Virus record (IMG/VR): IMGVR_UViG_3300027743_000026
Location: 1-64,000 of that record
Length of the DNA stretch: 64,000 nucleotides
Strand: one strand, 5' to 3'
DNA from: a virus
In this document: piece after piece, positions 22,048 to 45,182 of the stretch
Layout: every line of letters starts with the position of its first letter
Position numbering within the stretch: position 1 is the stretch's first letter
Made by a program: the position numbers and the translations under genes
The notes under the pieces: generated by a model
What the model was told of the DNA's origin: nothing
Databases searched by the model: none
Seen by the model: only the letters and a program-made list of their open reading frames with translations

Positions 22048-22392
22048 TCATCGCTTTATCCTCCCTCGCAAAACCTCAAACGGAGATACAGGCGTATCAT
22101 CGCCGATCGTGAGCTTCCATTTCTTTCCGAGCTGGTTAACAATTTTCCCACGGGTTTGATTGCATTCAAAACACGCCGCCACGACGTTGCCGGGCACGGT
22201 GCGGCCGCCCTGCCATACCTGCTCTAAATGGTCCGCGGTCATCGTGCGAGGACTGCACACACCGGCTTGGCCGGCGCTTGCCGGGTCCATCGACCTCCGA
22301 CACCAAAAGCACAATCCGTCCTGACGCATGAACGCCCGGCGGGCCAGCCGCCGAGCCATGATCTGATCATAGTGAGTACGCTTCAGACTCAT
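22048..22392 (-). CDS. HNH endonuclease
   Basis: CFWC...TADHL....GG.....NVVAAC..CN. Confidence 0.8.
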   Translation of the reverse strand: MSLKRTHYDQIMARRLARRAFMRQDGLCFWCRRSMDPASAGQAGVCSPRTMTADHLEQVWQGGRTVPGNVVAACFECNQTRGKIVNQLGKKWKLTIGDDTPVSPFEVLRGRIKR

Positions 22393-22668
22393 GTGCGAGC
22401 CCGACAATGTGCGACAAAGCCGGGCTCGCGACGACCGCAGCCATGCAAGGACAAAGTCACAAGGCCACCGCGGTCGCCGGCTTATTCTGCCCCGCGGAGA
22501 CCGCGCCAAGCAATTCCCATCGCAGCCCACTCAATAACGGCAGCCGGGTCTCACGCACAATGTGCATTGTCCCATTACGCTCGCGATAGACCGAGAACGG
22601 TCGGTCGAATATTGCAGCGCGCCGACGCGCCTCGCCGAATGCCCATTCACGAGTAAGGATATCCACCA

Positions 22669-27642: not shown

Positions 27643-27686
27643 ACATTCGCTTGACAACCCGTATGCCTGTCGCCAAAGATCGCGCG

Positions 27687-28859
27687 ATGAATAGACTAAA
27701 AATATGCGCCGTGTGTGGCGGCAGCTTCTGCTTGTTATCGCGCAAGCTGACATGCTCGGACAAATGCCATCGCGAACGCAAACGCATGGCAGATCGCAAA
27801 TATCGTCGGGGGCCTTATCGTGAGCACAAACGCGCGCAAGACCGCGCCTATCGTGAAGGGCCTATGCGCGAGCAACTTCTTGCAGGCAAACGCGAATGGG
27901 GCGCGGCCAATCGTGAGCGGATTCTGCAGCAGAGACGCGAATATCGTGAAGCCAATCGCGAGCAGATCAACGCATCTAAACGTGTGCCTGCAAGATTGCT
28001 CGCCTGCGTAGTATGTGGTGGTAGTTTCCAGACTAAAGTCTCGCGAAAACTGACCTGCTCGGCCGCATGTGCTCGCAAGCGCAAACACACGATCCGCGAC
28101 GAAGCGCATCGGGACCAGATCATCGCGCAGAAACGTGCATGGAACGCAGCGCATCGTGAGCAAATCAAAATATCGAACCGCAGATACGTAGAAGCCAATC
28201 GCGAGCAGATCAACGTACGCCGACGTGACTCACGCCATCGTCATCAGGAGTGGGTCAATGCGGTGTTTCCGCCTCGTCCACCGTGCCCTCGAGTCAACGC
28301 AGCCACGCTCAGCCCTCAGCATTATCGGGAATGGGTTAATGCAGTGTTTCCACCTCGGGCAAAAGGAAGGCGCGGTGGCGAGCGACCGGGAACAGGGCGG
28401 CCCAGAAAGGGTGTTACGCTGCCATTGAAAGTCTGCGTGTGCGGCAAAAAGTTTCGGGCTAAGCGAAGCACCTGTTCGAGAGCTTGTTACCGTAGCTACG
28501 TCTACGTTGCAGGACTGCCGCAGTATCCATTGTCGCAGGAAAGGCGTGGGGGCTGGCGCCCAGGCGGCGGGCGTCCCCGAACGACCCCGTTGGACTCGCA
28601 TGTTATGGCGTGGAAGTGGCACGTTGCGGGATTGTCGCCGGTGCCGTCGGCGCAAGGGCGCGGTGGCAAACGCCCAGGTGCAGGGCGTCCCCGAATGAAC
28701 CCGGTCGGATACGAACGCAAGTTCCAAATATCCTACGCAGTCCTGAAGAATCTCGGCATCTCACTGGAACATCTGCCGACGCGCTACCAGCAAATGCGCA
28801 TCGCATATGAATCGCTGAAGCAGCTTGGAGTATTGATACCAGAAGAGAAAGGAAATTAA
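27687..28859 (+). CDS. Basic repeat protein with CxxC/CSxxC zinc modules and RGG.RPG.GRP motifs
   Basis: Repeats visible in the translation; TTGACA promoter at 27651. Confidence 0.6.
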   Translation: MNRLKICAVCGGSFCLLSRKLTCSDKCHRERKRMADRKYRRGPYREHKRAQDRAYREGPMREQLLAGKREWGAANRERILQQRREYREANREQINASKRVPARLLACVVCGGSFQTKVSRKLTCSAACARKRKHTIRDEAHRDQIIAQKRAWNAAHREQIKISNRRYVEANREQINVRRRDSRHRHQEWVNAVFPPRPPCPRVNAATLSPQHYREWVNAVFPPRAKGRRGGERPGTGRPRKGVTLPLKVCVCGKKFRAKRSTCSRACYRSYVYVAGLPQYPLSQERRGGWRPGGGRPRTTPLDSHVMAWKWHVAGLSPVPSAQGRGGKRPGAGRPRMNPVGYERKFQISYAVLKNLGISLEHLPTRYQQMRIAYESLKQLGVLIPEEKGN

Positions 28860-32612: not shown

Positions 32613-32646
32613 TTGTCCCAACTCCTGTATGCGCAGGGGCGGAACA

Positions 32647-34950
32647 ATGGGTATCCCGGCAGATTTCCTGCTCGAAGCCTTTGCCGGACGCTCACAGGCG
32701 CCGGTCTGTATTTTGTGCTTGCCCAATATTCGCGGCGCGTTTCCACCAAGCGAAATCTACACCCGCGATCTGGCCGAGGCCGAAGCCTTCGTCAAGGAAA
32801 AGGACGGTCCTGGCGCCGCCATTTATTTCGGTGCCAATACTACCTTGCCGGGACGCAAACGCAACAAGGACAATGTTGCGGAGATCGTCACGCTGCACGC
32901 CGATCTCGATTTCAAGACCATTGCTGCAACGCCAGACATCATCGAACAGGTCCTGCGCGCGCTGCCATTGCCACCGTCTACGATCGTGGATTCCGGTAAC
33001 GGATTTCACGGTTACTGGCGCTTTCGCGAGGCGCTGCCGCCGGAGCTGCGGGAGCGGATCGAGGCGGCACTGCGGCGCCTGGCCTGGGCATTGGCCGGCG
33101 ACCCGGCCGTTTGCGAGATCGCCCGCATCATGCGGCTTCCCGGCTCGCACAACACCAAGGACGGCGCCTGGAAGCCGGTCCTGGTGCGCTGGAATAGCGG
33201 GCGGGAGTATTCCTTCGAGGAGCTGGACGAGTGGCTGGGCGGGCTCGAGAGCCCGTTGCTGGCCCGTCTGGCGCCGCCACCCAAGGCCGGCAATGGCCAC
33301 GCACGCGCCGGCCTGGCGGGTGCGGATGACACATTCGGGGCCTATGCCGCCGAGATTAAACCGATCCCGATCGACGTCGAGAACGAACTCGACGCCATGG
33401 AGTTTGGCGGCACGGATGGCAACGGGGTGAACCTGACCCAGCTCCGCGTGATCGGCTCACTCCTACACGATGAGACGCCAATCGAGCAGGCGATCGACTA
33501 CGTGGTCGACGCCACCTGGGCGCGCATCCCCGAGGCCATGGGGTGGAACCGGGCAGCCGAGGTTGCCCAGCTGCGGGATATGACGGTGCGAACGATCAAG
33601 GGCCGCCCCGAGCTGCTTGACCTGCAGGAGAATGTCCCGCGGTGGCTGGCCCAGCGGTTGGGCATAAGACAGACGGTAGAACCAGGGAAAGAGCCGCCGC
33701 TTAAAGCACTATTCGACGCCGCGACCGCGGCAGGGTCCAAGGCCGAACCAGAATCGGACGGGGAGCCTAAGCCCGAACCGCCGCCCAAGCCGCCGGGGAA
33801 GGGCCCAATTATCCTCAAGCGGTTGTTTCTTGAGGAGCTGCAGATACGGGCGGTGATCGCTCGCAAATGGGTGGTGGATCAGTTCGTCCTGGCCGGCCAG
33901 CTCAACGGCCTGTTCGGCGACGGTGGCGTGGGCAAGGATTATTTGCTGCTGCAGCTGGCGATCGCCATGACCTGCGGCGGCCAGTGGCTGGGGCGCGAAG
34001 TGTTGCAGGGCCGGGTGATCTATTTCCCGATCGAGGACGACCTCGATGAGGTGCGTCGGCGCGAGAGCAAGATCACCACGTTCATGGCCTCGAACGGGAT
34101 CTACGAGCCGCGCGACCGGGAGTTGATGATCGTGCCGATGGTGGGTGAGGACGCCGTGCTCGGGGTCTATGACAGCCGCCGCGGCGTGGTGCAGCCGACT
34201 GGGGTGTTCGCCGCCATCGAGAAGCTGGTCGCCGAGTTCAAACCCACGCTGGTGATCGTGGGCAACCGGGTCAATATTTTTTCGGTCAACCAGAACGACG
34301 ACGCCCACGCGGTGCAGAGTCTGCGGCTGCTTTCGGGCCTGTGCGCCAGGCACGAGACCGCGGTGCTGATGCCGGGTCATGTCAGCGTGACGGGTATGAA
34401 CACCGGCTCGGGCACCTCGGGCTCGGTGCAGTGGTCGAACGGGGTGCGGCTGCGCGGGTACCTGCAGCGGCCCAAGGACGAGGAAACAGGAGCAGCCGAT
34501 CCTGACCGGCGCGTGTTGCAGATCATGAAAACCAACTGGGGGCCGCCCGATCAGCAAATCGAATTGAAGTGGAGCGAAGGGCTGTTCGTTGCTGATGGGT
34601 TCAACATCACACCGCCGCAGCCGGAGCCTGGCGAGAGCACGGATCAGATGCGGGCGCGGCAAAAGCTGGCGATGGAAAGCGACGTCGAAGCCGAGTGCTT
34701 GCGGATGATCAACAAGGCGATCGCGATGGGGATCAGAATGAGCCCGCAGCCTCGGAGCAACAACAATCCAGCGACGATGTTCGCGCGCGATGACCGATTT
34801 ACCGAGTGCAAATATCGCGGGGAGAAGGGTGCCAAGCAGATGAATCAGGCGATCGGCCGATTGTTCATGCGCGGGCTGATCCGAGCGCAGAGTTATGGGC
34901 CGCCCTCCGATAAAACCAAGGAGATCGTGCTGGGTGAAAAGGATGATTGA
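32647..34950 (+). CDS. Primase-helicase (RepB-like primase plus AAA_25/RepA-like helicase)
   Basis: ADLD, SGNG.H.YW, RIMRLPGS.N.K; Walker A GDGGVGK; SGS..W.N..R. Confidence 0.9.
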   Translation: MGIPADFLLEAFAGRSQAPVCILCLPNIRGAFPPSEIYTRDLAEAEAFVKEKDGPGAAIYFGANTTLPGRKRNKDNVAEIVTLHADLDFKTIAATPDIIEQVLRALPLPPSTIVDSGNGFHGYWRFREALPPELRERIEAALRRLAWALAGDPAVCEIARIMRLPGSHNTKDGAWKPVLVRWNSGREYSFEELDEWLGGLESPLLARLAPPPKAGNGHARAGLAGADDTFGAYAAEIKPIPIDVENELDAMEFGGTDGNGVNLTQLRVIGSLLHDETPIEQAIDYVVDATWARIPEAMGWNRAAEVAQLRDMTVRTIKGRPELLDLQENVPRWLAQRLGIRQTVEPGKEPPLKALFDAATAAGSKAEPESDGEPKPEPPPKPPGKGPIILKRLFLEELQIRAVIARKWVVDQFVLAGQLNGLFGDGGVGKDYLLLQLAIAMTCGGQWLGREVLQGRVIYFPIEDDLDEVRRRESKITTFMASNGIYEPRDRELMIVPMVGEDAVLGVYDSRRGVVQPTGVFAAIEKLVAEFKPTLVIVGNRVNIFSVNQNDDAHAVQSLRLLSGLCARHETAVLMPGHVSVTGMNTGSGTSGSVQWSNGVRLRGYLQRPKDEETGAADPDRRVLQIMKTNWGPPDQQIELKWSEGLFVADGFNITPPQPEPGESTDQMRARQKLAMESDVEAECLRMINKAIAMGIRMSPQPRSNNNPATMFARDDRFTECKYRGEKGAKQMNQAIGRLFMRGLIRAQSYGPPSDKTKEIVLGEKDD

Positions 34951-35004
34951 GTTGTAACAACCAGAATCCACACGAAATAACCGGTTACCTCCAGAAAACA
35001 TCGG

Positions 35005-35216
35005 ATGCGTGGAGGGTGTGCGCGGAGGCAATAATTAAAAAATGCTGTGGTCTCAAGAGTTTATTTTTCTTCCACGCATAGCCCTCCACGCATTATGCGT
35101 GGAGTTTCGCGTTAAATCCTTATGCGTGGAGGTGAGCATATATCATAAATTGAAAAGCATTGAGATGTGCTGATAAGATCGATGCCGACGAGGGCTCCAC
35201 GCATGGCTCCACGCAT
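35005..35216. repeat. Cluster of seven TCCACGCAT boxes; candidate replication origin
   Basis: Mixed-orientation 9-10-mers with AT-rich spacers, directly after the primase-helicase. Confidence 0.65.
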
Positions 35217-35376
35217 AGGGTCAGAGCCTCCGCCCTCCGGTCCTATATACTACGTATATGGGCGGGGCCCTCCTGAAGGTCGGGCCCCCGCCCTTGTGTG
35301 CGATCGCTTCGGCGCTGTGGTCTTGAGGATGACACCGGGCTGGGGCGGACCCTTGGATCAAATCGGAGTTTGAGCT

Positions 35377-35958
35377 GTGCCGGAATTGAAAGCGATCGAG
35401 ACACGATACCGGGGCTACCGCTTCCGTAGTCGGACGGAGGCGCGATGGGCAGTGTTCTTGGACGTTTTGAAAATTGAGTGGGAATATGAGGTGCAGGGAT
35501 TTGAGACTGAGGCGGGGCGGTACTTACCTGATTTTTGGTTGCCAAAGATTGCGACGTTCTTTGAGGTGAAGCCGATGTTCAGTGACGCTTACACTAGGGA
35601 TGAGGCGTTGCTTTCGGTGATATTCAATCGGGACAAAGAATATACTCAGGTCAAGAGGTTGATGAGCAGTCTCGTGGATATGTCTGGACATCGTGGGGTG
35701 ATTGCTGTTGGCGCTCCCAGTAGCTTTAAGCCACCGGTGCTGTACGAGTGTGATGGTCCTAGGGCCTTTCCAGAGTATCGATTTTCTCAGGCACGGATTG
35801 GGTGGTTTGTTGGGTCGAAGGAGATGTGGAAGGCGCATATTCAGCAGCATAGCAACGATCGATATTTGTACAGTTTGCTGGGCGGTCTGATTAGCCGGAC
35901 GGACGAGGCTATGTTGCAGGCGCAACAGGCGCGGTTCGAGTTCGGGGAGAGTGGCTAA
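35377..35958 (+). CDS. PD-(D/E)XK-type nuclease
   Basis: AIET.Y.GY.FRSR.EARWAVF...YLPDF.LP......EVK. Confidence 0.75.
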   Translation: MPELKAIETRYRGYRFRSRTEARWAVFLDVLKIEWEYEVQGFETEAGRYLPDFWLPKIATFFEVKPMFSDAYTRDEALLSVIFNRDKEYTQVKRLMSSLVDMSGHRGVIAVGAPSSFKPPVLYECDGPRAFPEYRFSQARIGWFVGSKEMWKAHIQQHSNDRYLYSLLGGLISRTDEAMLQAQQARFEFGESG

Positions 35959-36053
35959 CCCACTGTGCGATTTCGGTCCTTCGGCTCTTGCGTTGATCAC
36001 TCGACCTGGCGTAGGACTCAGGGCGGACGGACTGCGGATCATCTTCGGGACCT

Positions 36054-36560
36054 ATGGCGTTCTGGGCGACGCTCGAGACCGAGAGTCAACGCGAATCAAT
36101 CGTTCGGCTGCTGATCATGCGGACCGGCCGGGAGACGTACCTCCCGCGGATCAAACATCACGCACGAGTCACGCCGTTATTTCCTCGCTACTTGTTCGTC
36201 AAAATCGTCGACGACCGATGGTGGGAGGTTCGTTGGACCCCGCATGTGCTGCGGATCCTTACGTTCGGAGAATATCCTCAGGCTGACGTCAGGCTCGAAG
36301 CTGCGATCGCGATGATCAAAAAGCAGGAACGGGACGGTCTGGTAAAACTTCCGGCCGCGGTGGCTTTGCGCAGGGGCGCCCCGGTCCGGATCAAAAGCGG
36401 AAGTTTTGCAGGCCACATCGGTATTCACGACGGCATGAGCGGAAAGGACCGGCAACGGGTCCTGCTCAAAATGCTGGGTCAGACCGTCCCGGTCGAGCTG
36501 CCCAATACCGACTGCCAACCTCTCACCGACCCACAGCTGCTAGAGAATTTACGGGCCTGA
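36054..36560 (+). CDS. nusG: NusG/RfaH-family transcription antitermination factor
   Basis: PLFPRYLFV NGN motif and KOW G..VRI..G.F.G..G. Confidence 0.85.
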   Translation: MAFWATLETESQRESIVRLLIMRTGRETYLPRIKHHARVTPLFPRYLFVKIVDDRWWEVRWTPHVLRILTFGEYPQADVRLEAAIAMIKKQERDGLVKLPAAVALRRGAPVRIKSGSFAGHIGIHDGMSGKDRQRVLLKMLGQTVPVELPNTDCQPLTDPQLLENLRA

Positions 36561-36572
36561 GGCCCCAAGGCG

Positions 36573-36800
36573 TTGCGCCAGGCGTCGAGTTGCGCTAGAG
36601 AATCACCATCCCACAAACCCGGTAAGCTGTTATTTGCACGCGGAAATCCCTGAATTGGGGACCTCCGTGAGTCGCAGCGCGCTGTTCAAAGCCTTGAAAA
36701 GACTGCGTTCGAAGCGCCGGAGTTTGTGGGAACTCACGCCGATTGCTTCGATCATTGGGCGCCCGGCTGGTTCATCGTCCACCCAGCCTGGGCGCCCTTC
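36573..36800 (+). promoter_or_regulatory. Candidate late promoter, structured leader and terminator-like hairpin
   Basis: TTGCGC-N17-TAGAGA; 36609-36622 pairs with 36717-36731; GC hairpin 36757-36797. Confidence 0.55.
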
Positions 36801-36923
36801 CTCATCCCCGCAAACCGGGTCCTGATGCGCCTGATGCAGGCAGCCCCCAGGCAGGTAGCCTCCTGCGGCAAATCGAACCGGTGGCCTCCGTAGCTCCCTC
36901 CAGAGCTGGAGGTACTCGAGTAA

Positions 36924-37286
36924 GTTCACAGATTTCGCTTGGCATTCATGGATTTTGCATTCATGGATTTCGCAAACAAATAAATCACAGTTTTCGCAAT
37001 TCAATTGGGGAAATTGGGTGATGGATCTGGCGTTGACCGAGGGCCCTACCGGCGGGGCGATCGCGCACCGGGCCGATTGTCCGCAAGTTCGCGCGCTGGC
37101 GGCCGCGGGCCAGCCAGTCATGACGATGCTCGGTTGCGAGAAGCCGCTGCCTGACGACGTGCCGCGGCATTCCTGCCTTGGGCCCGAGCAATCTGACTTG
37201 TTCGATTCATAGTTTTCGCAAATTCACAGATTTCGCAAATTCATGGATTTCGCAAATTCATGGATTTCGCAATTCATAGATTTCGC
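36924..37286 (+). repeat. Two clusters of about 17-bp ATTCAYRGWTTTCGCAA repeats (4 + 5 copies)
   Basis: 36924-36999 degenerate; 37205-37286 tandem. Confidence 0.85.
37021..37212 (+). CDS. Small hypothetical protein between the repeat clusters
   Basis: MDLALTEG...H.A.CP...HSCL. Confidence 0.5.
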   Translation: MDLALTEGPTGGAIAHRADCPQVRALAAAGQPVMTMLGCEKPLPDDVPRHSCLGPEQSDLFDS

Positions 37287-37396
37287 TTAGCAGAACCCGG
37301 CGCGTCCGCGCCTGGACACGTCGAGGCGACGGAGCGGCGCCGGGCTGCTACGCGCAGGCCGGCGCCGACCGAGGCTGAGGCGAGCTTGCTTGCGCG

Positions 37397-37687
37397 CTAG
37401 GTCTTGTCGGGCACACGCACGAAGTCGGCTTTGGGCTTCGAGCTGGCGTTCTTCGGGCCCCAGCCTTTGCGCACCAGGCACTCGGCGCGGTAGGTGTTCC
37501 AGGCCGCGAGCCCAGGCGTGGCCTTGCGCTCGGCGCTCTCGCGCCACTCGGCGCCGCAGGTCCGCATCACGTCCGTGAACGTGATCTTGGGTGCGGCGGG
37601 CGCGGCGGTCGGCGCCGGTGCCTCCTGCCCGGCGGCGGTGCCGAGCGAGAGCGCGACCAGGGCGGCCGCGAGGATGGTTTGTCGCAT
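37397..37687 (-). CDS. Secreted PsiF-like two-Cys protein
   Basis: Signal peptide; M..CGAEW...K......W..Y..EC; own promoter at 37766-37794. Confidence 0.6.
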   Translation of the reverse strand: MRQTILAAALVALSLGTAAGQEAPAPTAAPAAPKITFTDVMRTCGAEWRESAERKATPGLAAWNTYRAECLVRKGWGPKNASSKPKADFVRVPDKT

Positions 37688-37865
37688 GGTGTCGGTTTCC
37701 TTTTCGGTTCGGTTCGGTTGTCGGGGTCCGGACCATCCGGCGCCCTCTGTCGTTTCAGTATTGATAACGTATGCCTAGGTTCAAAAAGAGTCAAGAATTA
37801 TTTTCGCAAACAAACAAATAAATTGAAAGGCGCTCAAAGCCGCTAGGGCGGTCGCTGGTGACGTG

Positions 37866-37894
37866 AAAAAGCCCGGCTAGTCACCTAGCCGGGC
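37866..37894 (-). terminator. Intrinsic terminator
   Basis: 10-bp stem GCCCGGCTAG/CTAGCCGGGC followed by U5 on the - strand. Confidence 0.75.
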
Positions 37895-37935
37895 CCTCCT
37901 GGAAACGAGCGTACGGGCTCGCTAGCGCCTTCGGT

Positions 37936-38325
37936 TTAGTCTTGTTCTGTTAGCCCGTCGCAAAAGTCGCGCGTTACCGCCTCAAGTTCACCGTCGGTCG
38001 GTTCGACCGTTGAATAAACTACGGCTAGTAGTTTTTCGATCACGACATAGGCGGGTCGCAATGCTTCGGGCAAGGTGTCGCGGGCTTCGGTATGGTCCAT
38101 TAGGTCGCCCAGATTATCTTCGCTGCAAACGTCGACCGTAAACGCTGCGCGAACCTCCGAAGGCGCCGCAACCGCGGCCGCGATAGTCGCATCAATTGCC
38201 GCGTCGGTCGCGGTACACTCCGCCGCATCGGCAATTGACCAGCAACCGGCGCCGTATGGTTCAGCTGAAAATGCGGGCGCCGCAAACGCAAACGCCGCAA
38301 CGGTAGCAAGTAGAATCCGTCTCAT
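37936..38325 (-). CDS. Secreted acidic protein
   Basis: Signal peptide MRRILLATVAAFAFAAPAFS. Confidence 0.6.
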   Translation of the reverse strand: MRRILLATVAAFAFAAPAFSAEPYGAGCWSIADAAECTATDAAIDATIAAAVAAPSEVRAAFTVDVCSEDNLGDLMDHTEARDTLPEALRPAYVVIEKLLAVVYSTVEPTDGELEAVTRDFCDGLTEQD

Positions 38326-38410
38326 AGGGTAGTCCTTTCATTTTCCGTTCTGGTGTCCGGCAGAATTGCCGATCATGGCGCCCGCGGGCGCCATGCGCTG
38401 CAATTCGGCT

Positions 38411-38590
38411 TTAGTGAAGCAACAAACCGAGCGCAATTAGCGCGCAAGCGCCTAATGCAATCGGTCCGATTTTCCACATTGCCCGAAAAATTAGAATGTT
38501 GAGATAGTTCCAAGCTGAACCGAGCAAGAAAAGCGCCGCGGCCAGCAACATTACGAGTATTTCCGGGTTGGCGTTAAAATAGTGTTGCAT
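38411..38590 (-). CDS. 59-aa two-TM membrane protein (not in ORF track)
   Basis: Own translation MQHYFNANPEILVMLLAAALFLLG...IALGLLLH*; AGGA RBS. Confidence 0.55.
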   Translation of the reverse strand: MQHYFNANPEILVMLLAAALFLLGSAWNYLNILIFRAMWKIGPIALGACALIALGLLLH

Positions 38591-38594
38591 TGTC

Positions 38595-38780
38595 CTATCT
38601 CTCGATTTTGTTTGTTTCCGGGTGCCATTCCGACTTTATGACGGGGTCACCTATCGAGTCGGTTTCGTCCGTGTCTTCGGTTTCGCAATCATAATCCCAT
38701 AGTTCGACTATGACTCCGGGCGGTATGTTCTGAATCTCTTGAACAACGCCACCCGACACGATAATTCGAATCCGGTTCAT
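38595..38780 (-). CDS. Small acidic protein (V.GGVVQ...DYD type)
   Basis: ATGA-coupled to the GP88-like gene; D/E-rich. Confidence 0.6.
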   Translation of the reverse strand: MNRIRIIVSGGVVQEIQNIPPGVIVELWDYDCETEDTDETDSIGDPVIKSEWHPETNKIER

Positions 38781-39571
38781 GCTGCATTCTCCCGCACAAC
38801 AAACCCGGACCGATCGCGCTTTGCCTTGTTTCCCTTGGGCGAAAGCCATACCACGACGTTTGCGGGGTCCAGGTGTCGCAAGTCGTGTTCGTCACCGTCG
38901 ATTGTGCGGTATCCGTTCCATTGCTTGGGGCGCGGCAATGCTGACACCACAGCAACGTTGCGGCCCTCCTGCAAAAGCTCGATGGCTTGCGCGTCGTTTT
39001 CTTCCGAGCGCGAAAACGTCAAGTAGTAGTTTGCTGGCAATGCGCGCTTGAACCGGCGCGCGCTTTTCGTGTAGTCGACAAATTGCACCGCGGGAAACGC
39101 GCTAAAGATAGTATGGGCGCCCGGCGTTACAGTGTGGCCGCTGATCGCGCTCAATTCTGCGGCGAATTCCGGCGTCACCATCACGCGCAAGCCTTCGTAT
39201 GCGATATCGGTCGACCCGTTCGGCCGCAACACAAGCTTGACGCGCTTGCGCTTTGCGGTGCGAATTGCCGCGGCGCTGTGGCGTAGCATTTCGAGCATGT
39301 AGGCTTGTCGGTCGCGCATGAAGTAGCGCGCCTTGCGTTCGCGAGAATCGCGGACCGAATTAGTCCAATCGGTCGCGGCCGATACCATCGAAGCTTGACC
39401 GGATTCGCGGCCAAGGCAAAGCGCAATGCAACCCGGACTAGCATCGGGGCACAAATTGCCGACCCCGGCGGATTCATGCGGCGCCATGTAGTTAATTCCG
39501 TTCAGGTAACGGAACTTTGCCGCTTTGATAGCCTTGGGGCTATCGAACGAATAAAAGCGCTTGAATTGCAT
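38777..39571 (-). CDS. GP88-family protein
   Basis: CP.AS.GC...CL, R.NG.TD, F.DYTK, NY.LTFS.SE.N, GD..DLR..DP, K.....D.SGFV motifs. Confidence 0.75.
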   Translation of the reverse strand: MQFKRFYSFDSPKAIKAAKFRYLNGINYMAPHESAGVGNLCPDASPGCIALCLGRESGQASMVSAATDWTNSVRDSRERKARYFMRDRQAYMLEMLRHSAAAIRTAKRKRVKLVLRPNGSTDIAYEGLRVMVTPEFAAELSAISGHTVTPGAHTIFSAFPAVQFVDYTKSARRFKRALPANYYLTFSRSEENDAQAIELLQEGRNVAVVSALPRPKQWNGYRTIDGDEHDLRHLDPANVVVWLSPKGNKAKRDRSGFVVRENAA

Positions 39572-39579
39572 TTTAGTCT

Positions 39580-39662
39580 CTCCTGGTGTTCCGAGCGGCT
39601 TCAACCGCCCTTCTGAACATTAGTCGCTAATACGTATGCCTAGGTTCAAAAGAAAATGCAAG
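39580..39662 (-). repeat. About 70-bp promoter-hairpin-RBS repeat (leader copy 4)
   Basis: Near-identical to 40243-40313, 40987-41057 and 41952-42020. Confidence 0.9.
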
Positions 39663-39685
39663 AATTATTTTGGAAATAAACCAAC

Positions 39686-39711
39686 AAAAAAAAAAGCGCC
39701 CCGCGGGGCGC
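39686..39711 (-). terminator. Intrinsic terminator
   Basis: GCGCCC/GGGCGC stem followed by U10 on the - strand. Confidence 0.75.
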
Positions 39712-39720
39712 CCTCTTGGT

Positions 39721-40233
39721 TCAGATTCTGGTGATACATTCAGGGCCGAATCCCTGGTGAACCGAAGTCGGGACCGTAAGCTTGCGACCACAGCGGCCGC
39801 ATTTTCCTTCCGTCCATATTTCGAGCTGATCGGGCAAGCGGCCGCGAACCAAGGCGCGCCATGTCCAATCGAAGGCTTTAGCGGAGGGCGCGTCGCGGGA
39901 AACGTCACCGGGGCGTGGAACCTTGCGACCGAGCCAAAAAATGTCGCGCGAAATGCGACCTAAATATTTGTAGTCGGATTCGTTGTTTTGTCCGACCAAA
40001 AGCCCGACAAAATGACAAAGCCCGTCGTCGCTAACGGAAATGCGATAGGTGAACCGGGCGCCGGTTTTCTTGCTTGCGAGCGTAAATGTTGCGTTACCAG
40101 CGCGCAAGAATTTGAGCGCGTCGGGCGCCGTCGTGAGCTGTCCGCGCATATCGGCGCCCTTGGCGGGCGCGGGGTCCGCGTCAAGGTTTATATCGTGATC
40201 CAAGCCCGCGAAAATGTCAGAGTGATTGCACAT
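39721..40233 (-). CDS. DUF6011-domain protein
   Basis: GNA.FT..S.KTG...TY; C-terminal CGRCGR.LT.P.S...G.GPEC. Confidence 0.8.
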   Translation of the reverse strand: MCNHSDIFAGLDHDINLDADPAPAKGADMRGQLTTAPDALKFLRAGNATFTLASKKTGARFTYRISVSDDGLCHFVGLLVGQNNESDYKYLGRISRDIFWLGRKVPRPGDVSRDAPSAKAFDWTWRALVRGRLPDQLEIWTEGKCGRCGRKLTVPTSVHQGFGPECITRI

Positions 40234-40242
40234 TGCTTGAGT

Positions 40243-40324
40243 CTCCTGGTGTTGCGAGCGGCTTCAACCGCCCTTCTGAACATTAGTCGTTAATATGTAT
40301 GCCTAGGTTCAAAGGAAGAGTCAA
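40243..40324 (-). repeat. Promoter-hairpin-RBS repeat (leader copy 5)
   Basis: TTGACTC -35; TTTGAACCTAGGCATAC; GGGCGG-UUGAAG-CCGCUC; ACCAGGAG. Confidence 0.9.
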
Positions 40325-40326
40325 AT

Positions 40327-40358
40327 AAAAAAGGCGCCCCGCCCGCGGGGCGCCTTTT
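40327..40358. terminator. Bidirectional intrinsic terminator
   Basis: A6-GGCGCCCCGC-CC-GCGGGGCGCC-T4. Confidence 0.8.
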
Positions 40359-40372
40359 CGGAGTGATCCGGA

Positions 40373-40978
40373 TCAGGATCGGGGCGGGCGCGCGTTGCGG
40401 CCCTTCGGGGTAACGGCGCCCGCCTTGTTCAGAAGGCCTTTACTGATCAGCGAATCCTTGGCCGCTTGCCATTGCTCGCGGGTCGGGAATTGCGGCGTTG
40501 AGTCGTCGCGGCGCCAAGGATATTCCGCTTGAGTCTTGGCCATGGTGTAACGGTCTTGACCGTTATAGCTCGACTTGAACGAACACGTTGCGCTTAACAC
40601 AATCGACTCGTGTTCGCTCAATTCCGGCGCCGGCGCCGGTAACAGGGCCGCGGCGTTGTCCGGGTGCACGTAGAACGTCAATCCCATATCCTTGCCGCAA
40701 AAGAGCGAGTGTTCGACTACGGCAAAGCCGGGCTTTAGCGTAATGTGCTGATCCTTGCGCGACGAATCCCATGGCGCCGACATATTGTCGGACGCGGCGA
40801 TAGCGTCACCAGTAGCGAGCTGAACAAACCGAAACGTGTTGCGGGTACCGCCGGACCATAGACCAGCGTCCGAAGGAATCGTGACTTGCGTCACCACGAC
40901 AGCCTTAAACTTTTTGCCCGTGTATCCGCCGCGCAATTGCGCGGGAATCATCGCGGCGTCTAGATAGATTGCGTTCAT
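40373..40978 (-). CDS. Early hypothetical protein
   Basis: W.GG.R, VE...FCGKD.G...YVHP, L..KG.L...GA.T..G motifs; own promoter and terminator. Confidence 0.7.
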   Translation of the reverse strand: MNAIYLDAAMIPAQLRGGYTGKKFKAVVVTQVTIPSDAGLWSGGTRNTFRFVQLATGDAIAASDNMSAPWDSSRKDQHITLKPGFAVVEHSLFCGKDMGLTFYVHPDNAAALLPAPAPELSEHESIVLSATCSFKSSYNGQDRYTMAKTQAEYPWRRDDSTPQFPTREQWQAAKDSLISKGLLNKAGAVTPKGRNARPPRS

Positions 40979-40986
40979 GTCGGAGT

Positions 40987-41068
40987 CTCCTGGTGTTGCG
41001 AGCGGCTTCAACCGCCCTTCTGAACATTAGTCGTCAATACGTATGCCTAGGTTCAAAGGAAGAGTCAA
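40987..41068 (-). repeat. Promoter-hairpin-RBS repeat (leader copy 6)
   Basis: As above. Confidence 0.9.
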
Positions 41069-41069
41069 C

Positions 41070-41285
41070 TTATTTTCGCATCAATCCAATCGAGACACGG
41101 TCGCGGGCGATAAACCGAGCGGCGCCCACATCGGCCAATATTTCGTCGCGCGCGTTCCACCATGCAAAGCGCTTATTTGGCGCCGCGACATAGTAGCAGC
41201 GGGATTCGCGGATCGTGGTTCCGTCGGGCTTATCCCAATGCAGAGTCACGCGCCATTGTCGGACCGTCGGAATATTGCGGGACAT
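41070..41285 (-). CDS. Small early protein
   Basis: TAATG coupling to the upstream gene. Confidence 0.55.
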   Translation of the reverse strand: MSRNIPTVRQWRVTLHWDKPDGTTIRESRCYYVAAPNKRFAWWNARDEILADVGAARFIARDRVSIGLMRK

Positions 41286-41758
41286 TAGCGAGCCCTCGCA
41301 AACGTCTTGACCTGATCGCGGGTAATTTCCCAAGGCGCGTCATATTTTGGCACCATACGAATCGCCTCGGTGCGAATTGCCTCGATAATCTTGCAAGCAA
41401 CCGACTCTTCATAGTCGTTAGTCTCGCAAGCCTGATAATCGAAACAAGAGCAACCGCTAAGGATCAGCCCGACAAGCTTGTGTTGCGGCAAAGACTCGAG
41501 CCCTGCAAACGGGCTGAACTTATAGGACGCGACCGACTCGCCCTCGCGACCGGGCGCCGTTTCCTCGGTTTCGTTTGGATAACGGTTCAGAACCGAGCGA
41601 AGATTCTCGCCTAGCAAGATTCGACCGGTTTCGGTCGCGTTGTCGCTGGTGATATCGATGCAACGGGCGGGACCGTCGACGAAATAGCGCAAGCGCTGCG
41701 ACACCGCGAAAGTCACAAGCGCGTCAATATGATCGTGCGAGACAACAAAAGCAGACAT
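41285..41758 (-). CDS. Early hypothetical protein (L..EN..S...RY / YQ.CE family)
   Basis: Recognisable motif pattern; preceded by leader copy 7 (41766-41791). Confidence 0.7.
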   Translation of the reverse strand: MSAFVVSHDHIDALVTFAVSQRLRYFVDGPARCIDITSDNATETGRILLGENLRSVLNRYPNETEETAPGREGESVASYKFSPFAGLESLPQHKLVGLILSGCSCFDYQACETNDYEESVACKIIEAIRTEAIRMVPKYDAPWEITRDQVKTFARAR

Positions 41759-42032: not shown

Positions 42033-42199
42033 AAAATTCGACACCTGGAATCAAATTAAATAGACTAGGATTCAAAGTCGGAGGGCCCGGAACCGGGCTC
42101 GGTTCAGGGCAAGGGCCCGAAAAACCAGGGCTTGAACGGTACCCGACTACCAAATGACGGGCCGACTCGCCGGAACAAAACTAAATTAGCAGGCTAATA

Positions 42200-43651: not shown

Positions 43652-43974
43652 TGCGGTTCCGGCCGGCGGACGACCCACGCAACACCGTCGATGACATCCC
43701 CGGGGTCACCACCGACAAGACCGAGCCCGGGACGCCGGTGGAATGGGAGGATAATTTTCTCTCCAACACCTTCGCCTGGGCCAGCTACCGGCTGGTCCCG
43801 GATTGGTGCCAGACCCCGGAGCACTTCACTTCGCGGTTCACGCAATACCTCTTTACCGACTGTCCCTGCTGCCTGTTCTGGCGCGGATTGACCTTTGGCT
43901 ACGTGGTCGGCGGCGTTGTCGGGGCCATCGTCGGCATGATCGTGATGTGGTTGGGTGCGCAATGGTTGCACTAG
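43651..43974 (+). CDS. Membrane protein with CPCC motif
   Basis: TDCPCCLFWRG followed by a GxxxG-rich TM helix; overlaps the terL start. Confidence 0.65.
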   Translation: MRFRPADDPRNTVDDIPGVTTDKTEPGTPVEWEDNFLSNTFAWASYRLVPDWCQTPEHFTSRFTQYLFTDCPCCLFWRGLTFGYVVGGVVGAIVGMIVMWLGAQWLH

Positions 43975-45182
43975 TGATGGGCGAGAACTTCACCCGCACG
44001 CTGTTCGCCAAGAACGTGCGACACAAGGCCCTGTATGGCGGCCGCGGCTCCGGCAAGACCTGGTCGATCGGCTCCTACCTGGTCTACACCGCCAACACCG
44101 AAAGGAAGCGCATCATCTGCGCCCGGCAGTTTCAGAACTCGATCCGGGACAGCTCCAAGGATCTGATCGAGCGCCGCATCCGCGACTTCGAGCTGGACCG
44201 CGAATTCAGTCTGACCGACCGCGCCATCACCCATCGCAAGACCGGCTCGGAGTTCTTGTTCATCGGGCTCGAGCGCAACATCGAGAGCATCCGTAGCTTG
44301 GAAGGCGCCGACATCGTGTGGATCGACGAGGCCCGCACCATCTCCAACCGCTCGATGGAGATTCTGCTGCCCACCGTGCGGGCGCCCGGCTCGCAGCTGA
44401 TCTGGTCCTGGAATCCTGAGGATCCTCTGGACCCGGTCGACGCCTATTTCCGCGCCGGCAAGCCACCGCCCAATTCGGTGATCACGTTCGTCGACTACAA
44501 CGACAATCCGTACTTCAAGCACACCACTTTGCCGCACGAGATGGAGGTCCTAAAACGCGGAAATTTCAACAGATATCGCCATGTTTGGCTGGGAGAATAC
44601 GATTTATCGTACGATTCCAAGGTATTTTCCAACATTCGCGTCGGCCGCATCGACGTGCCCTACGAAACTCCGCCGCTCTACGGCATGGACTTCGGTTTCG
44701 GCAAGGATCCGAGCTTCGTGGTCAAGTGCTATCACCTGGAGAAGACCAAACAGATTTTCATCGCCGCTGAGGCCACCGGCAGAGTTGCCTTGGACATGCT
44801 GCCGGCGATGTTGCGCACCGTGATCGCCGACGATGGCGACCTGGTGAAGGCCGACGCCTCACAGCCTGGCACCATCGAGTTTTTGCAGGCGCGCGGCTTC
44901 AATATCCACGCCGCCAACAAGGGACCAGGCTCGGTCAAGAGTGGCATCAACTTCCTGCAGGGCTACGAGATCGTCATCGACCCGAATTGCGAGGCGATGC
45001 GCGAGGAAGCCCGCCTTTACAGCTGGATGACCGACAAGCTCACTGGCAGAGTTCTCTCCGCCCCGGTCGACGCCTACAATCACGGTTGGGACGCCGTGCG
45101 CTACGCCACTGAGTCAGCCCAGGTCGAAAGCGCCATGGAAGGCAACAGTAACGGCGGCGTGATGTCGCTGAAGATATGGTGA
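43962..45182 (+). CDS. terL: Terminase large subunit (PBSX/Terminase_3 type)
   Basis: YGGRGSGKT, R.FQNSI.DS, WIDEA, WNP, GMDFG...DP, NH..DA.RYA. Confidence 0.95.
   Translation: MVALVMGENFTRTLFAKNVRHKALYGGRGSGKTWSIGSYLVYTANTERKRIICARQFQNSIRDSSKDLIERRIRDFELDREFSLTDRAITHRKTGSEFLFIGLERNIESIRSLEGADIVWIDEARTISNRSMEILLPTVRAPGSQLIWSWNPEDPLDPVDAYFRAGKPPPNSVITFVDYNDNPYFKHTTLPHEMEVLKRGNFNRYRHVWLGEYDLSYDSKVFSNIRVGRIDVPYETPPLYGMDFGFGKDPSFVVKCYHLEKTKQIFIAAEATGRVALDMLPAMLRTVIADDGDLVKADASQPGTIEFLQARGFNIHAANKGPGSVKSGINFLQGYEIVIDPNCEAMREEARLYSWMTDKLTGRVLSAPVDAYNHGWDAVRYATESAQVESAMEGNSNGGVMSLKIW

Follow-up and report, generated by a model that had tools for sequence, protein, structure and literature searches.

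A NusG-Type Gene and a Covarying Leader RNA Form a Conserved Module in Uncultured Phages: A Candidate Loading Site for Late Antitermination

Introduction

Why does a phage carry a gene for a NusG-type transcription factor directly in front of a promoter and a stretch of DNA that can form several RNA stems? The question is raised by a locus near 36.6 kb of the IMG/VR virus record IMGVR_UViG_3300027743_000026, a genome of 72,469 bp (CheckV completeness 100%), of which the first 64 kb were analyzed and are referred to here as the window. To our knowledge, specialized paralogues of NusG have been described in a small number of cellular systems, and the signals at which they are loaded in only two of them, RfaH and LoaP. 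An earlier note, made from the sequence alone, had recognized the gene, a promoter and a multi-stem RNA followed by a terminator-like hairpin, and had likened their position to that of lambda Q upstream of pR′. It suggested a loading site for late antitermination, from which terS would be reached only if polymerase read through some 5 kb of early genes on the opposing strand. Here, we compare the locus with its counterparts in related phages and consider what the RNA might do.

Results

A Conserved RNA Structure Downstream of the NusG Gene

The RNA downstream of the NusG gene (Table 1) is present as a single copy in the 72-kb genome. Folding of positions 36600–36800 (201 nt) gave −88.6 kcal/mol, compared to −65.3 ± 4.1 kcal/mol for 200 dinucleotide shuffles, none of which was as stable (z = −5.73). 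The closing stem, the two inner hairpins and the GC hairpin, here denoted P1, P2, P3 and P5, all lie where the earlier note had placed them. That the structure exceeds chance follows from its conservation, with compensatory changes, in relatives of the phage. There are 55 homologues of the NusG protein in a large protein collection, and an alignment of 37 of these (A2) retrieved 46 viral-contig loci and 46 metagenome loci. Recurrence of the layout after NusG was assessed visually at first, and then with a shared sequence box (described below) as an anchor. Covariance models were built from 10 well-aligned members (R1), from 27 matches (R2) and from P2, P5 and a further helix, P4 (R3). R2 was used to search the window and 65 of the 92 loci; the other 27 either were duplicates or lacked sequence beyond the gene, and were left out. 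In these 66 sources, it found 36 matches (E up to 0.01), all on the same strand as NusG, and in most loci the element starts 3–46 nt after the NusG stop codon. R3 matches the window at 36604–36801 (38.9 bits, E 3.7e-10).

In the R2-guided alignment of the 36 sequences (A7), 91.3% of 1200 cells are paired, and 38 of the 39 pairs have changed on both sides. The covariation score of 0.563 compares to 0.173 for shuffles (none of 500 as high) and to at most 0.137 for slid partners. A smaller alignment (A6, 27 sequences) gave similar values, with 90.3% of cells paired and 34 of 39 pairs changed on both sides. The changes are spread over all the conserved helices: both sides have changed in 13 of 13 model pairs of P1 (88% paired), in 9 of 10 pairs of P2 (94–96% paired) and in 16 of 16 pairs of P5, as well as in 9 of 9 pairs of P4 in the alignment made with R3 (A9, 30 matches; 82–92% paired). 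The earlier note had proposed fold and covariation analysis downstream of phage nusG homologues as a check on the element, and these compensatory changes bear the element out. MAFFT alone placed P1 out of register (66.7% paired), and model-guided alignments were needed. As a control that does not depend on alignment, arms were paired with their own or with foreign partners in 22 of the 27 rows, after three identical and two truncated rows had been dropped. The mean duplex energy was −18.2 kcal/mol for own and −7.4 kcal/mol for foreign arms of P1, with the own partner best in 16 of 22; for P4, the values were −15.1 and −8.2 kcal/mol (14 of 22). Cells with G-U outnumber those with A-C by 89 to 34, which fits an RNA made from the + strand.

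The RNA is linked to the gene. Of the 64 NusG-homologue loci whose sequence extends 200 nt or more beyond the stop codon, 34 had a model hit and 41 had either a model hit or the box. This was the case for 40 of the 54 loci with a NusG identity of 38% or more, and for 1 of the 10 below 38%. The gene and the RNA are a conserved module, and the RNA, by its structure, its compensatory changes and its fixed strand and position, can be classed in a generic sense as a structured cis-regulatory leader. In the closest relative, L003 (99% identical in NusG), positions 36607–36815 are almost invariant, while both flanks diverge.

Other identities for the element were considered and set aside. Rfam 15 had no match at the gathering score in the whole window, and a search of 36400–37100 at E up to 10 returned only two unrelated sub-threshold hits; ARAGORN found no tRNA or tmRNA. 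Overlapping ORFs (36630–37121 on the − strand and short ones on the + strand) are not genes: they match no family, and indels of 1 or 2 nt relative to L003 break all of them. No reverse transcriptase that would suggest a retron lies nearby. A packaging RNA of the phi29 type, a DNA palindrome and an origin fit poorly with arms about 95 nt apart, the one-strand preference for G-U and the fixed position after a promoter.

One relative, L085, has two tandem elements after NusG, at approximately 2000–2190 and 2196–2367. The first is degenerate: it keeps a P1-like stem (UCCCACAGAC../..UUUUGUGGGA) and a GC hairpin, and the GCAGCGCG box is missing; the second is a complete element preceded by its own promoter.

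Helices and Conserved Box

P1 closes a three-way junction with 15 pairs and one bulged A; the 14-mer of its 5′ arm is unique within the window. The arms of P4 bracket the 3′ arm of P1, giving the order P1a-P4a-P1b-P4b, and RNAalifold, applied to the seed alignment, picks P4 and not P1. In several members (L004, L015 and L030), the linkers between these arms are only 0–2 nt long, so that P1 and P4 cannot both form in full, and the leader has two states. The two helices thus compete, as a switch or as a pseudoknot; the latter is conceivable in the window, since the linkers there total about 14 nt. The window RNA favors the P1 state (−88.6 kcal/mol, compared to −77.2 kcal/mol when P4 is forced).

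P2 has A/U-rich loops of 5–10 nt across members. P2 may resemble boxB (CCCUGAA..GGG), and the loop length varies. P3 is an insertion of about 26 nt limited to the window and L003; L084 (75% identical in NusG), L085 (66%) and the core group do not have it.

The box that follows P2 has the family consensus G-Y-GCAGCGCG-Y-U, with a run of U after it in most rows, and becomes GCAGAGCG or GCGGGACGC in more distant members. The distance from the end of GCRGMGCG to the base of P2 is 12 nt in 25 of the 30 rows that could be scored (6 of the 36 could not), 11 nt in four and 14 nt in one. P3 pairs the box, and does so only in the window and L003; it is therefore the sequence and spacing of the box that are conserved, not its single-strandedness in the RNA. 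Such invariance despite differing RNA pairing fits a site that would be recognized during transcription. No second box or copy of the element was found near the late genes of the window phage.

The earlier note had called P5 terminator-like, a description that we abandon. The stem is there, but the loop has 12 nt, the tail UUCCUCAUCCCC has no U-run and the terminator scan did not flag the hairpin, unlike canonical T-run terminators present elsewhere in the window phage. Across members, the loop is 12 nt or longer and the U-run is missing from most; it is found in a few relatives (L022, L025, L026, L027 and L040). In the core group (L005, L006, L009, L010, L012, L014, L015, L016 and others), the P5 loop carries a C/U-rich motif, CCUCCUC, often within ..CUAGCCUCCUC.. 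or ..GUCCUCCUCRAGCC... The loop of the window, UUCAUCGUCCAC, does not have this motif.

The Promoter

The promoter assigned in the earlier note (Table 1) would place the start of transcription at about 36607–36609. It is conserved: 34 of 38 relatives have TTGCGn-N16-18-TAnnnn ending 1–14 nt 5′ of the structure, the spacer being 17 nt long in 24, and the start positions supplied for the four misses were rough. The fuller motif reads TTGCGn-N17-TA(c)(t)A(a/g). The strict scan for a sigma-70 consensus does not pick up the site in the window, since the last base of the −10 hexamer is rarely T. We propose that the promoter is of the housekeeping type.

In many members, both hexamers overlay codons of the NusG tail (..V-A.. 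and ..Y-stop). The last approximately 15 columns of A2 have no conserved residues other than ..PLxVA.. and ..RY-stop, which fall on the −35 and −10 hexamers; the tail of the protein therefore seems to have been shaped by the overlapping promoter. The motif is also kept where it is non-coding (the window, L003, the second copy in L085, L024/25/28, L040, L095 and L101). Its retention in coding and non-coding settings alike places the constraint on the DNA.

The NusG Paralogue

The ORF in front of the promoter encodes a specialized NusG-type protein, as the earlier note had recognized. Residues 4–73 match the NGN domain (Pfam PF02357, E 2.4e-7, 31.6 bits with a cut-off of 22.2), and PHROG labels the ORF “transcription antiterminator”. 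Among the named NCBIfam models, that of RfaH (TIGR01955) scored highest, with 67.3 bits, below its cut-off of 144.5. A second RfaH model (NF006534; 41.1 bits, cut-off 124), UpxY (NF033644; 42.7 bits, cut-off 100), NusG (40.4 bits) and LoaP (NF033641; 17.7 bits, cut-off 125) likewise stayed below their cut-offs. The Pfam scan reported no KOW domain for the window protein; the profile of the family aligns over its full length with RfaH and NusG chains, including Aquifex NusG, through the KOW region. An AlphaFold (AF2) model based on 37 homologues was confident for the NGN domain, with a predicted local distance difference test score (pLDDT) of about 90 over residues 1–70. The C-terminal part was modeled with low confidence (pLDDT 39–71), as helices rather than a barrel. 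The top Foldseek matches of this model, through their NGN domains, were the plasmid protein PrfaH and autoinhibited RfaH, a hint that the phage paralogue might adopt an RfaH-like autoinhibited state.

Among cultured phages, tblastn with the protein found only two Staphylococcus records, at 32%, and no cultured carrier. Contigs of 151–322 nt from four metatranscriptome runs (four studies) are 95–99% identical to parts of the NusG ORF (36034–36534); as contigs, they have no readable starts, ends or strand and are not proof of transcription. None of them lies on the RNA element, and they are uninformative on whether the RNA is made.

Genomic Context in the Relatives and in the Window Lineage

Replication genes lie upstream of NusG in the relatives, on the same strand, and in all 11 loci examined, genes for an HNH endonuclease (8 loci), terS (4) and/or terL (8) follow downstream, also on the same strand. 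In L004 and L009, the ATG of the HNH gene lies 4–6 nt after P5, and the RNA is therefore the 5′ untranslated region (UTR) of the first late gene there; in L004, there is no free purine-rich stretch before this start. L005, L010 and the window have more than 100 nt between P5 and the next ORF. Seven contigs of 26–43 kb (L004, L005, L007, L011, L012, L013 and L016) end 459–1029 nt after the NusG stop codon, just past HNH, which may reflect a fixed, cos-type genome end between HNH and terS in that group.

The lineage of the window (the window itself, L003, L084 and L085) differs from this arrangement. Here, P5 is followed by direct repeats, a small ORF and more repeats. In the window, the repeats are nine iterons (0.18 copies expected), which occur only at this site; in L084 and L085, other repeats take their place. 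An iteron array just after a replication operon might serve as an origin of the iteron type or as an array of operators. The small ORF always comes after the RNA in this lineage (counterparts L085:2959–3135 and L084:1337–1609), and its product has the pattern ..HRADCPxVR..G.PVMTM..C..P.D.PRHSCL, in which the Cys and His residues suggest metal binding. It belongs to no Pfam, PHROG or NCBIfam family (DUF6233 was only a weak sub-threshold match), and its Atlas hits were all under 0.9.

Opposing genes come next in the window. Past the gene at 39721–40233, there is a strong two-sided hairpin terminator (39690–39717; a 12-pair GC stem with a T run on the − strand), and a second T-run terminator lies at 40332–40344 (−); canonical terminators are therefore in use in the window phage. 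The terminase block, 5.6 kb from the RNA element, belongs to a late block that is preceded by an AT-rich divergent region with a promoter-like site (42038–42066). We propose that the module of the window phage drives only the short unit of iterons and small Cys/His ORF, and not the terminase operon. The likeness to Q and pR′ drawn in the earlier note thus applies to the relatives, where the module sits between the replication and late packaging operons, but not to the window, where the RNA does not head late genes.

The Phage and Its Other Features

PHROG scans of 97 candidate ORFs led us to classify the phage as contractile-tailed; its other features are included in Table 1. HNH endonuclease-like ORFs occur within the replication region (22048–22530 on the − strand and 27651–28859 on the + strand), and the terminase has no adjoining HNH gene, unlike that of the 40-kb relatives. 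Two features give weak hints to the host: terL is closest to that of Synechococcus and Agrobacterium myophages (42–54%), and the GC-TA form of the leader promoter is reminiscent of alphaproteobacterial promoters. A blastn search of 35000–38500 against cultured phages gave no match, and a protein-pattern scan of genome contigs for NusG relatives gave none. A DNA pattern of box plus P5 picked out 34 stretches of genome contigs from many phyla; none of these match model R1, and all are attributed to chance.

Table 1. Position of the module and of neighboring features in the window.
Feature	Position	Strand	Remarks
NusG/RfaH-type specialized paralogue, 168 aa	36054–36560	+	Last gene of the replication operon
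Putative promoter	36573–36601	+	−35 TTGCGC (36573–36578), 17-nt spacer, −10 TAGAGA (36596–36601); from sequence
Structured RNA, ~195 nt	36607–36801	+	Model R2: 32.8 bits, E 5.4e-5, full length
P1, 5′ arm	36609–36623	+	UCCCACAAACCCGGU; pairs with 36716–36731
P1, 3′ arm	36716–36731	+	GCCGGAGUUUGUGGGA; pairs with 36609–36623
P2 hairpin	36639–36651/36657–36669	+	CGGA..UCCC/GGGA..UCCG; internal loop, A/U-rich end loop
Conserved box	36670–36683	+	AGU-CGCAGCGCG-CU; follows P2
P3 hairpin	36672–36689/36694–36712	+	CGCAG..UUCAA/UUGAA..CUGCG; pairs the conserved box
P4, 5′ arm	36709–36715	+	UCGAAGC; pairs with 36745–36751
P4, 3′ arm	36745–36751	+	GCUUCGA; pairs with 36709–36715
P5 GC hairpin	36757–36770/36783–36797	+	14 pairs, 12-nt loop; followed by UUCCUCAUCCCC, no U-run
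Nine direct iterons, TTCAYRGWTTTCGC	36925–36997 (4), 37206–37286 (5)	+	17-nt period; flank the small ORF
Small ORF, 63 aa	37021–37212	+	HRADCP..PRHSC; conserved in L003, L084 and L085
Tail fiber genes	0–7.6 kb		PHROG
Replication operon	about 24–36.6 kb	+	DNA polymerase, RecE/Cas4-like exonuclease, nucleotidyltransferase
Primase-helicase	32629–34950	+	Replication operon; PHROG
Resolvase-like gene	35377–35958	+	Replication operon; PHROG
Opposing gene block (4.4 kb)	37397–41758	−	PHROG scan
Late block	from 42200	+	Portal, protease, capsid, endolysin, sheath; PHROG
terL	43803–45182	+	Late block

Discussion

The anatomy of the locus, the linkage between gene and RNA and the analogy with RfaH/ops and LoaP argue for a structured leader that serves as the loading and antitermination site of the phage NusG paralogue, a reading to which we assign a probability of roughly 55%. 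The module would then have two parts, a NusG/RfaH-like factor that ends the early/replication operon and a promoter-driven leader RNA of about 170–200 nt, the leader being the cis site through which the phage factor is loaded onto the RNA polymerase of the host and makes it resistant to pausing and termination further downstream. We envisage that transcription begins at the first bases of P1 and that P2 then forms, acting as a pause hairpin. Polymerase would pause 12–13 nt past P2, at the end of the GCAGCGCG box, which at that point would lie within the transcription bubble, as ops does for RfaH. The NusG paralogue could read the box there, either as non-template DNA or as nascent RNA at the junction of P1 and P2, and bind polymerase. 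The remainder of the leader (P4, the closure of P1, and P5) would fold thereafter. The two states defined by P1 and P4 may gate P5, which, where it abuts the first late gene, probably masks its start.

Several observations weigh against this reading. P5 has no U-run in most members, which makes the target of antitermination obscure; Rho-dependent termination or translational control are equally possible. The box differs from ops, the JUMPstart model RF01707 does not match it, and P2 is not a UNCG hairpin like that of LoaP. No late operon follows the module in the window phage, nor does a second box occur near terS/terL. Neither model hit nor box was found in 23 of the 64 NusG-homologue loci, some of which have variant folds (e.g., L013). 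Alignments fitted to a model lean towards structure, and the window row scores low (32.8 bits). Finally, adjacency of gene and RNA would also be expected if the RNA were a leader of the late operon that works without the protein.

The RNA might act alone in cis, with NusG a mere neighbor, either as an antiterminator RNA of the HK022 put type or as a riboswitch-like attenuator in which P1/P4 senses a ligand, a protein or temperature and sets the first late gene via P5. An element with its own promoter, two competing helices that each covary, a three-way junction closed by P1, as in many aptamers, and a P5 that abuts the HNH start codon would all suit such a device. However, P4 does not overlap P5, so the usual logic of terminator and antiterminator is missing, and P5 is again without a U-run. 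An RNA that needs no protein is also hard to reconcile with the tight linkage to one NusG clade (40/54 compared to 1/10), and with the window lineage, where the element has stayed beside NusG although the late operon is not downstream. On balance, we regard an RNA acting by itself as unlikely.

The absence of a late gene directly after the element in the window lineage would be expected of a stand-alone RNA of about 190 nt that acts in trans, with P5 as its protective or terminating 3′ hairpin. Its 5′ end would be sealed in P1 and its 3′ end in P5, and the CCUCCUC-type loop conserved in many P5 hairpins might act on ribosome-binding sites; alternatively, the RNA could be a decoy that binds polymerase or the NusG paralogue. 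The loop of the window is without the CCUCC motif, though, and P5 has no U-run. In L004 and L009, moreover, the short distance from P5 to the HNH start leaves no room for another promoter, making the RNA a 5′ UTR. A role in trans is, in our view, improbable.

RfaH can bring the ribosome to a start site that has no open Shine-Dalgarno sequence. By extension, the leader could work at the level of translation or RNA stability, protecting the 5′ end and masking the first late start, with the NusG paralogue, if it is involved at all, recruiting the ribosome instead of counteracting a terminator. The paired 5′ end, the close HNH start, the missing purine-rich stretch in L004 and a structural model of the protein that resembles RfaH most are in line with this. 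It gives no role to the fixed spacing between hairpin and box, and it does not explain the members in which the next ORF is far from P5 (L005, L010 and the window); we consider it quite improbable. Least probable is the read-through of some 5 kb of opposing genes to terS/terL put forward in the earlier note: although the module is homologous to one that heads packaging genes in relatives and lies on the same strand as the late block, such read-through is neither needed nor indicated, because the opposing genes carry strong terminators, one of them two-sided, and the late block has its own promoter-like site in an AT-rich divergent region, while the lineage keeps the iteron-ORF-iteron unit as a direct downstream target.

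The proposed loading of the NusG paralogue at the leader can be extended, speculatively, to a device that times late gene expression. An RfaH-like factor, possibly autoinhibited and fold-switching, would be recruited by P2 and the ops-like box; the mutually exclusive P1 and P4 would record whether loading has taken place and, by way of P5, leave the first late gene open or closed. For the window lineage, the device would have been moved in front of the iteron array, perhaps an origin, so that loading could instead license transcription across it. We think it rather doubtful that the whole of this scheme is correct. If it were, the phage factor would be the first of the NusG type that reads an RNA so large and structured, and the phages would have made their counterpart of Q out of the universal elongation factor.

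The module would add a phage-borne case to the known NusG paralogues, one in which the covarying RNA is much larger, the spacing between a hairpin and an invariant box is fixed and two helices compete. In a widespread group of uncultured soil and sediment phages, its place is at the switch from early to late genes. With one protein of 168 residues and about 230 bp of DNA, it is a compact system amenable to testing, and it opens the questions of how NusG-type factors find their targets, whether the signal is DNA or RNA, and how late genes are activated in phages without Q or N. Rfam lacks this RNA family, which can serve to annotate the starts of late operons in metagenomic phage contigs.

Among the known systems, RfaH, which loads at the 12-nt ops pause site in leaders (PMC7819879), offers the closest parallel. 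In both cases, a specialized NusG paralogue goes with a short conserved box (about 12 nt) that lies in the leader at the 5′ end of a long operon, and the phage protein is closest to the RfaH model, with PrfaH and autoinhibited RfaH as top structural matches. The phage box has Y-G at its end, with U's after it, and its distance from a hairpin is fixed, a geometry that would fit a pause site. The box itself, GYGCAGCGCGYU, is not ops, however, and RF01707 gives no match; the protein remains far from the RfaH cut-off (67 compared to 144.5 bits). In addition, the gene of the phage factor directly precedes the presumed site, and the box lies inside a large covarying fold that ops does not need.

LoaP depends on three features of its leader, an RNA hairpin, a pause and a terminator, and is described as the one NusG-like protein for which binding to an RNA element is known (PMC12691694). 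The dfn/mln leaders of Bacillus velezensis on which it acts share with the phage leader a structure, a downstream pause (presumed in the phage) and a hairpin before the first gene, and the factor is encoded beside its target (PMC12691694). As described there, the LoaP RNA is a single small hairpin with a UNCG tetraloop, unlike the multi-helix phage RNA of about 190 nt with A/U-rich loops of 5–10 nt. The phage protein scores only 17.7 bits with the LoaP model, and the hairpin of the phage leader is without a U-run.

In lambda, Q is the last gene before the late operon and is followed by the pR′ promoter, a short structured leader (6S), the tR′ hairpin and the late genes. The arrangement in the relatives is alike, with NusG as the last gene before the late operon, then a promoter that looks constitutive and a short structured leader with a hairpin. 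Q has no relation to NusG, and its loading site is DNA within the promoter and involves a sigma-dependent pause; tR′, unlike P5, is a canonical terminator.

Promoter-proximal RNA elements that make polymerase resistant to termination also include lambda nut (boxA/boxB, with N), HK022 put and conAn. In conAn of conjugative elements, a protein and a leader RNA are described as acting together in antitermination (PMC8191782). Rfam searches gave no sequence or model match of the phage element to nut, put or conAn. A phage NusG paralogue accompanied by a structured leader was not described in the full-text papers searched; PMC7593976 only mentions that rfaH-like genes are carried by plasmids and prophages, and PMC11150451 concerns an unrelated antiterminator of a gene transfer agent cluster. 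A NusG paralogue that acts together with a cis leader signal is already known as a kind; what appears to be new here is a specialized NusG paralogue borne by a phage and paired with a large cis leader.

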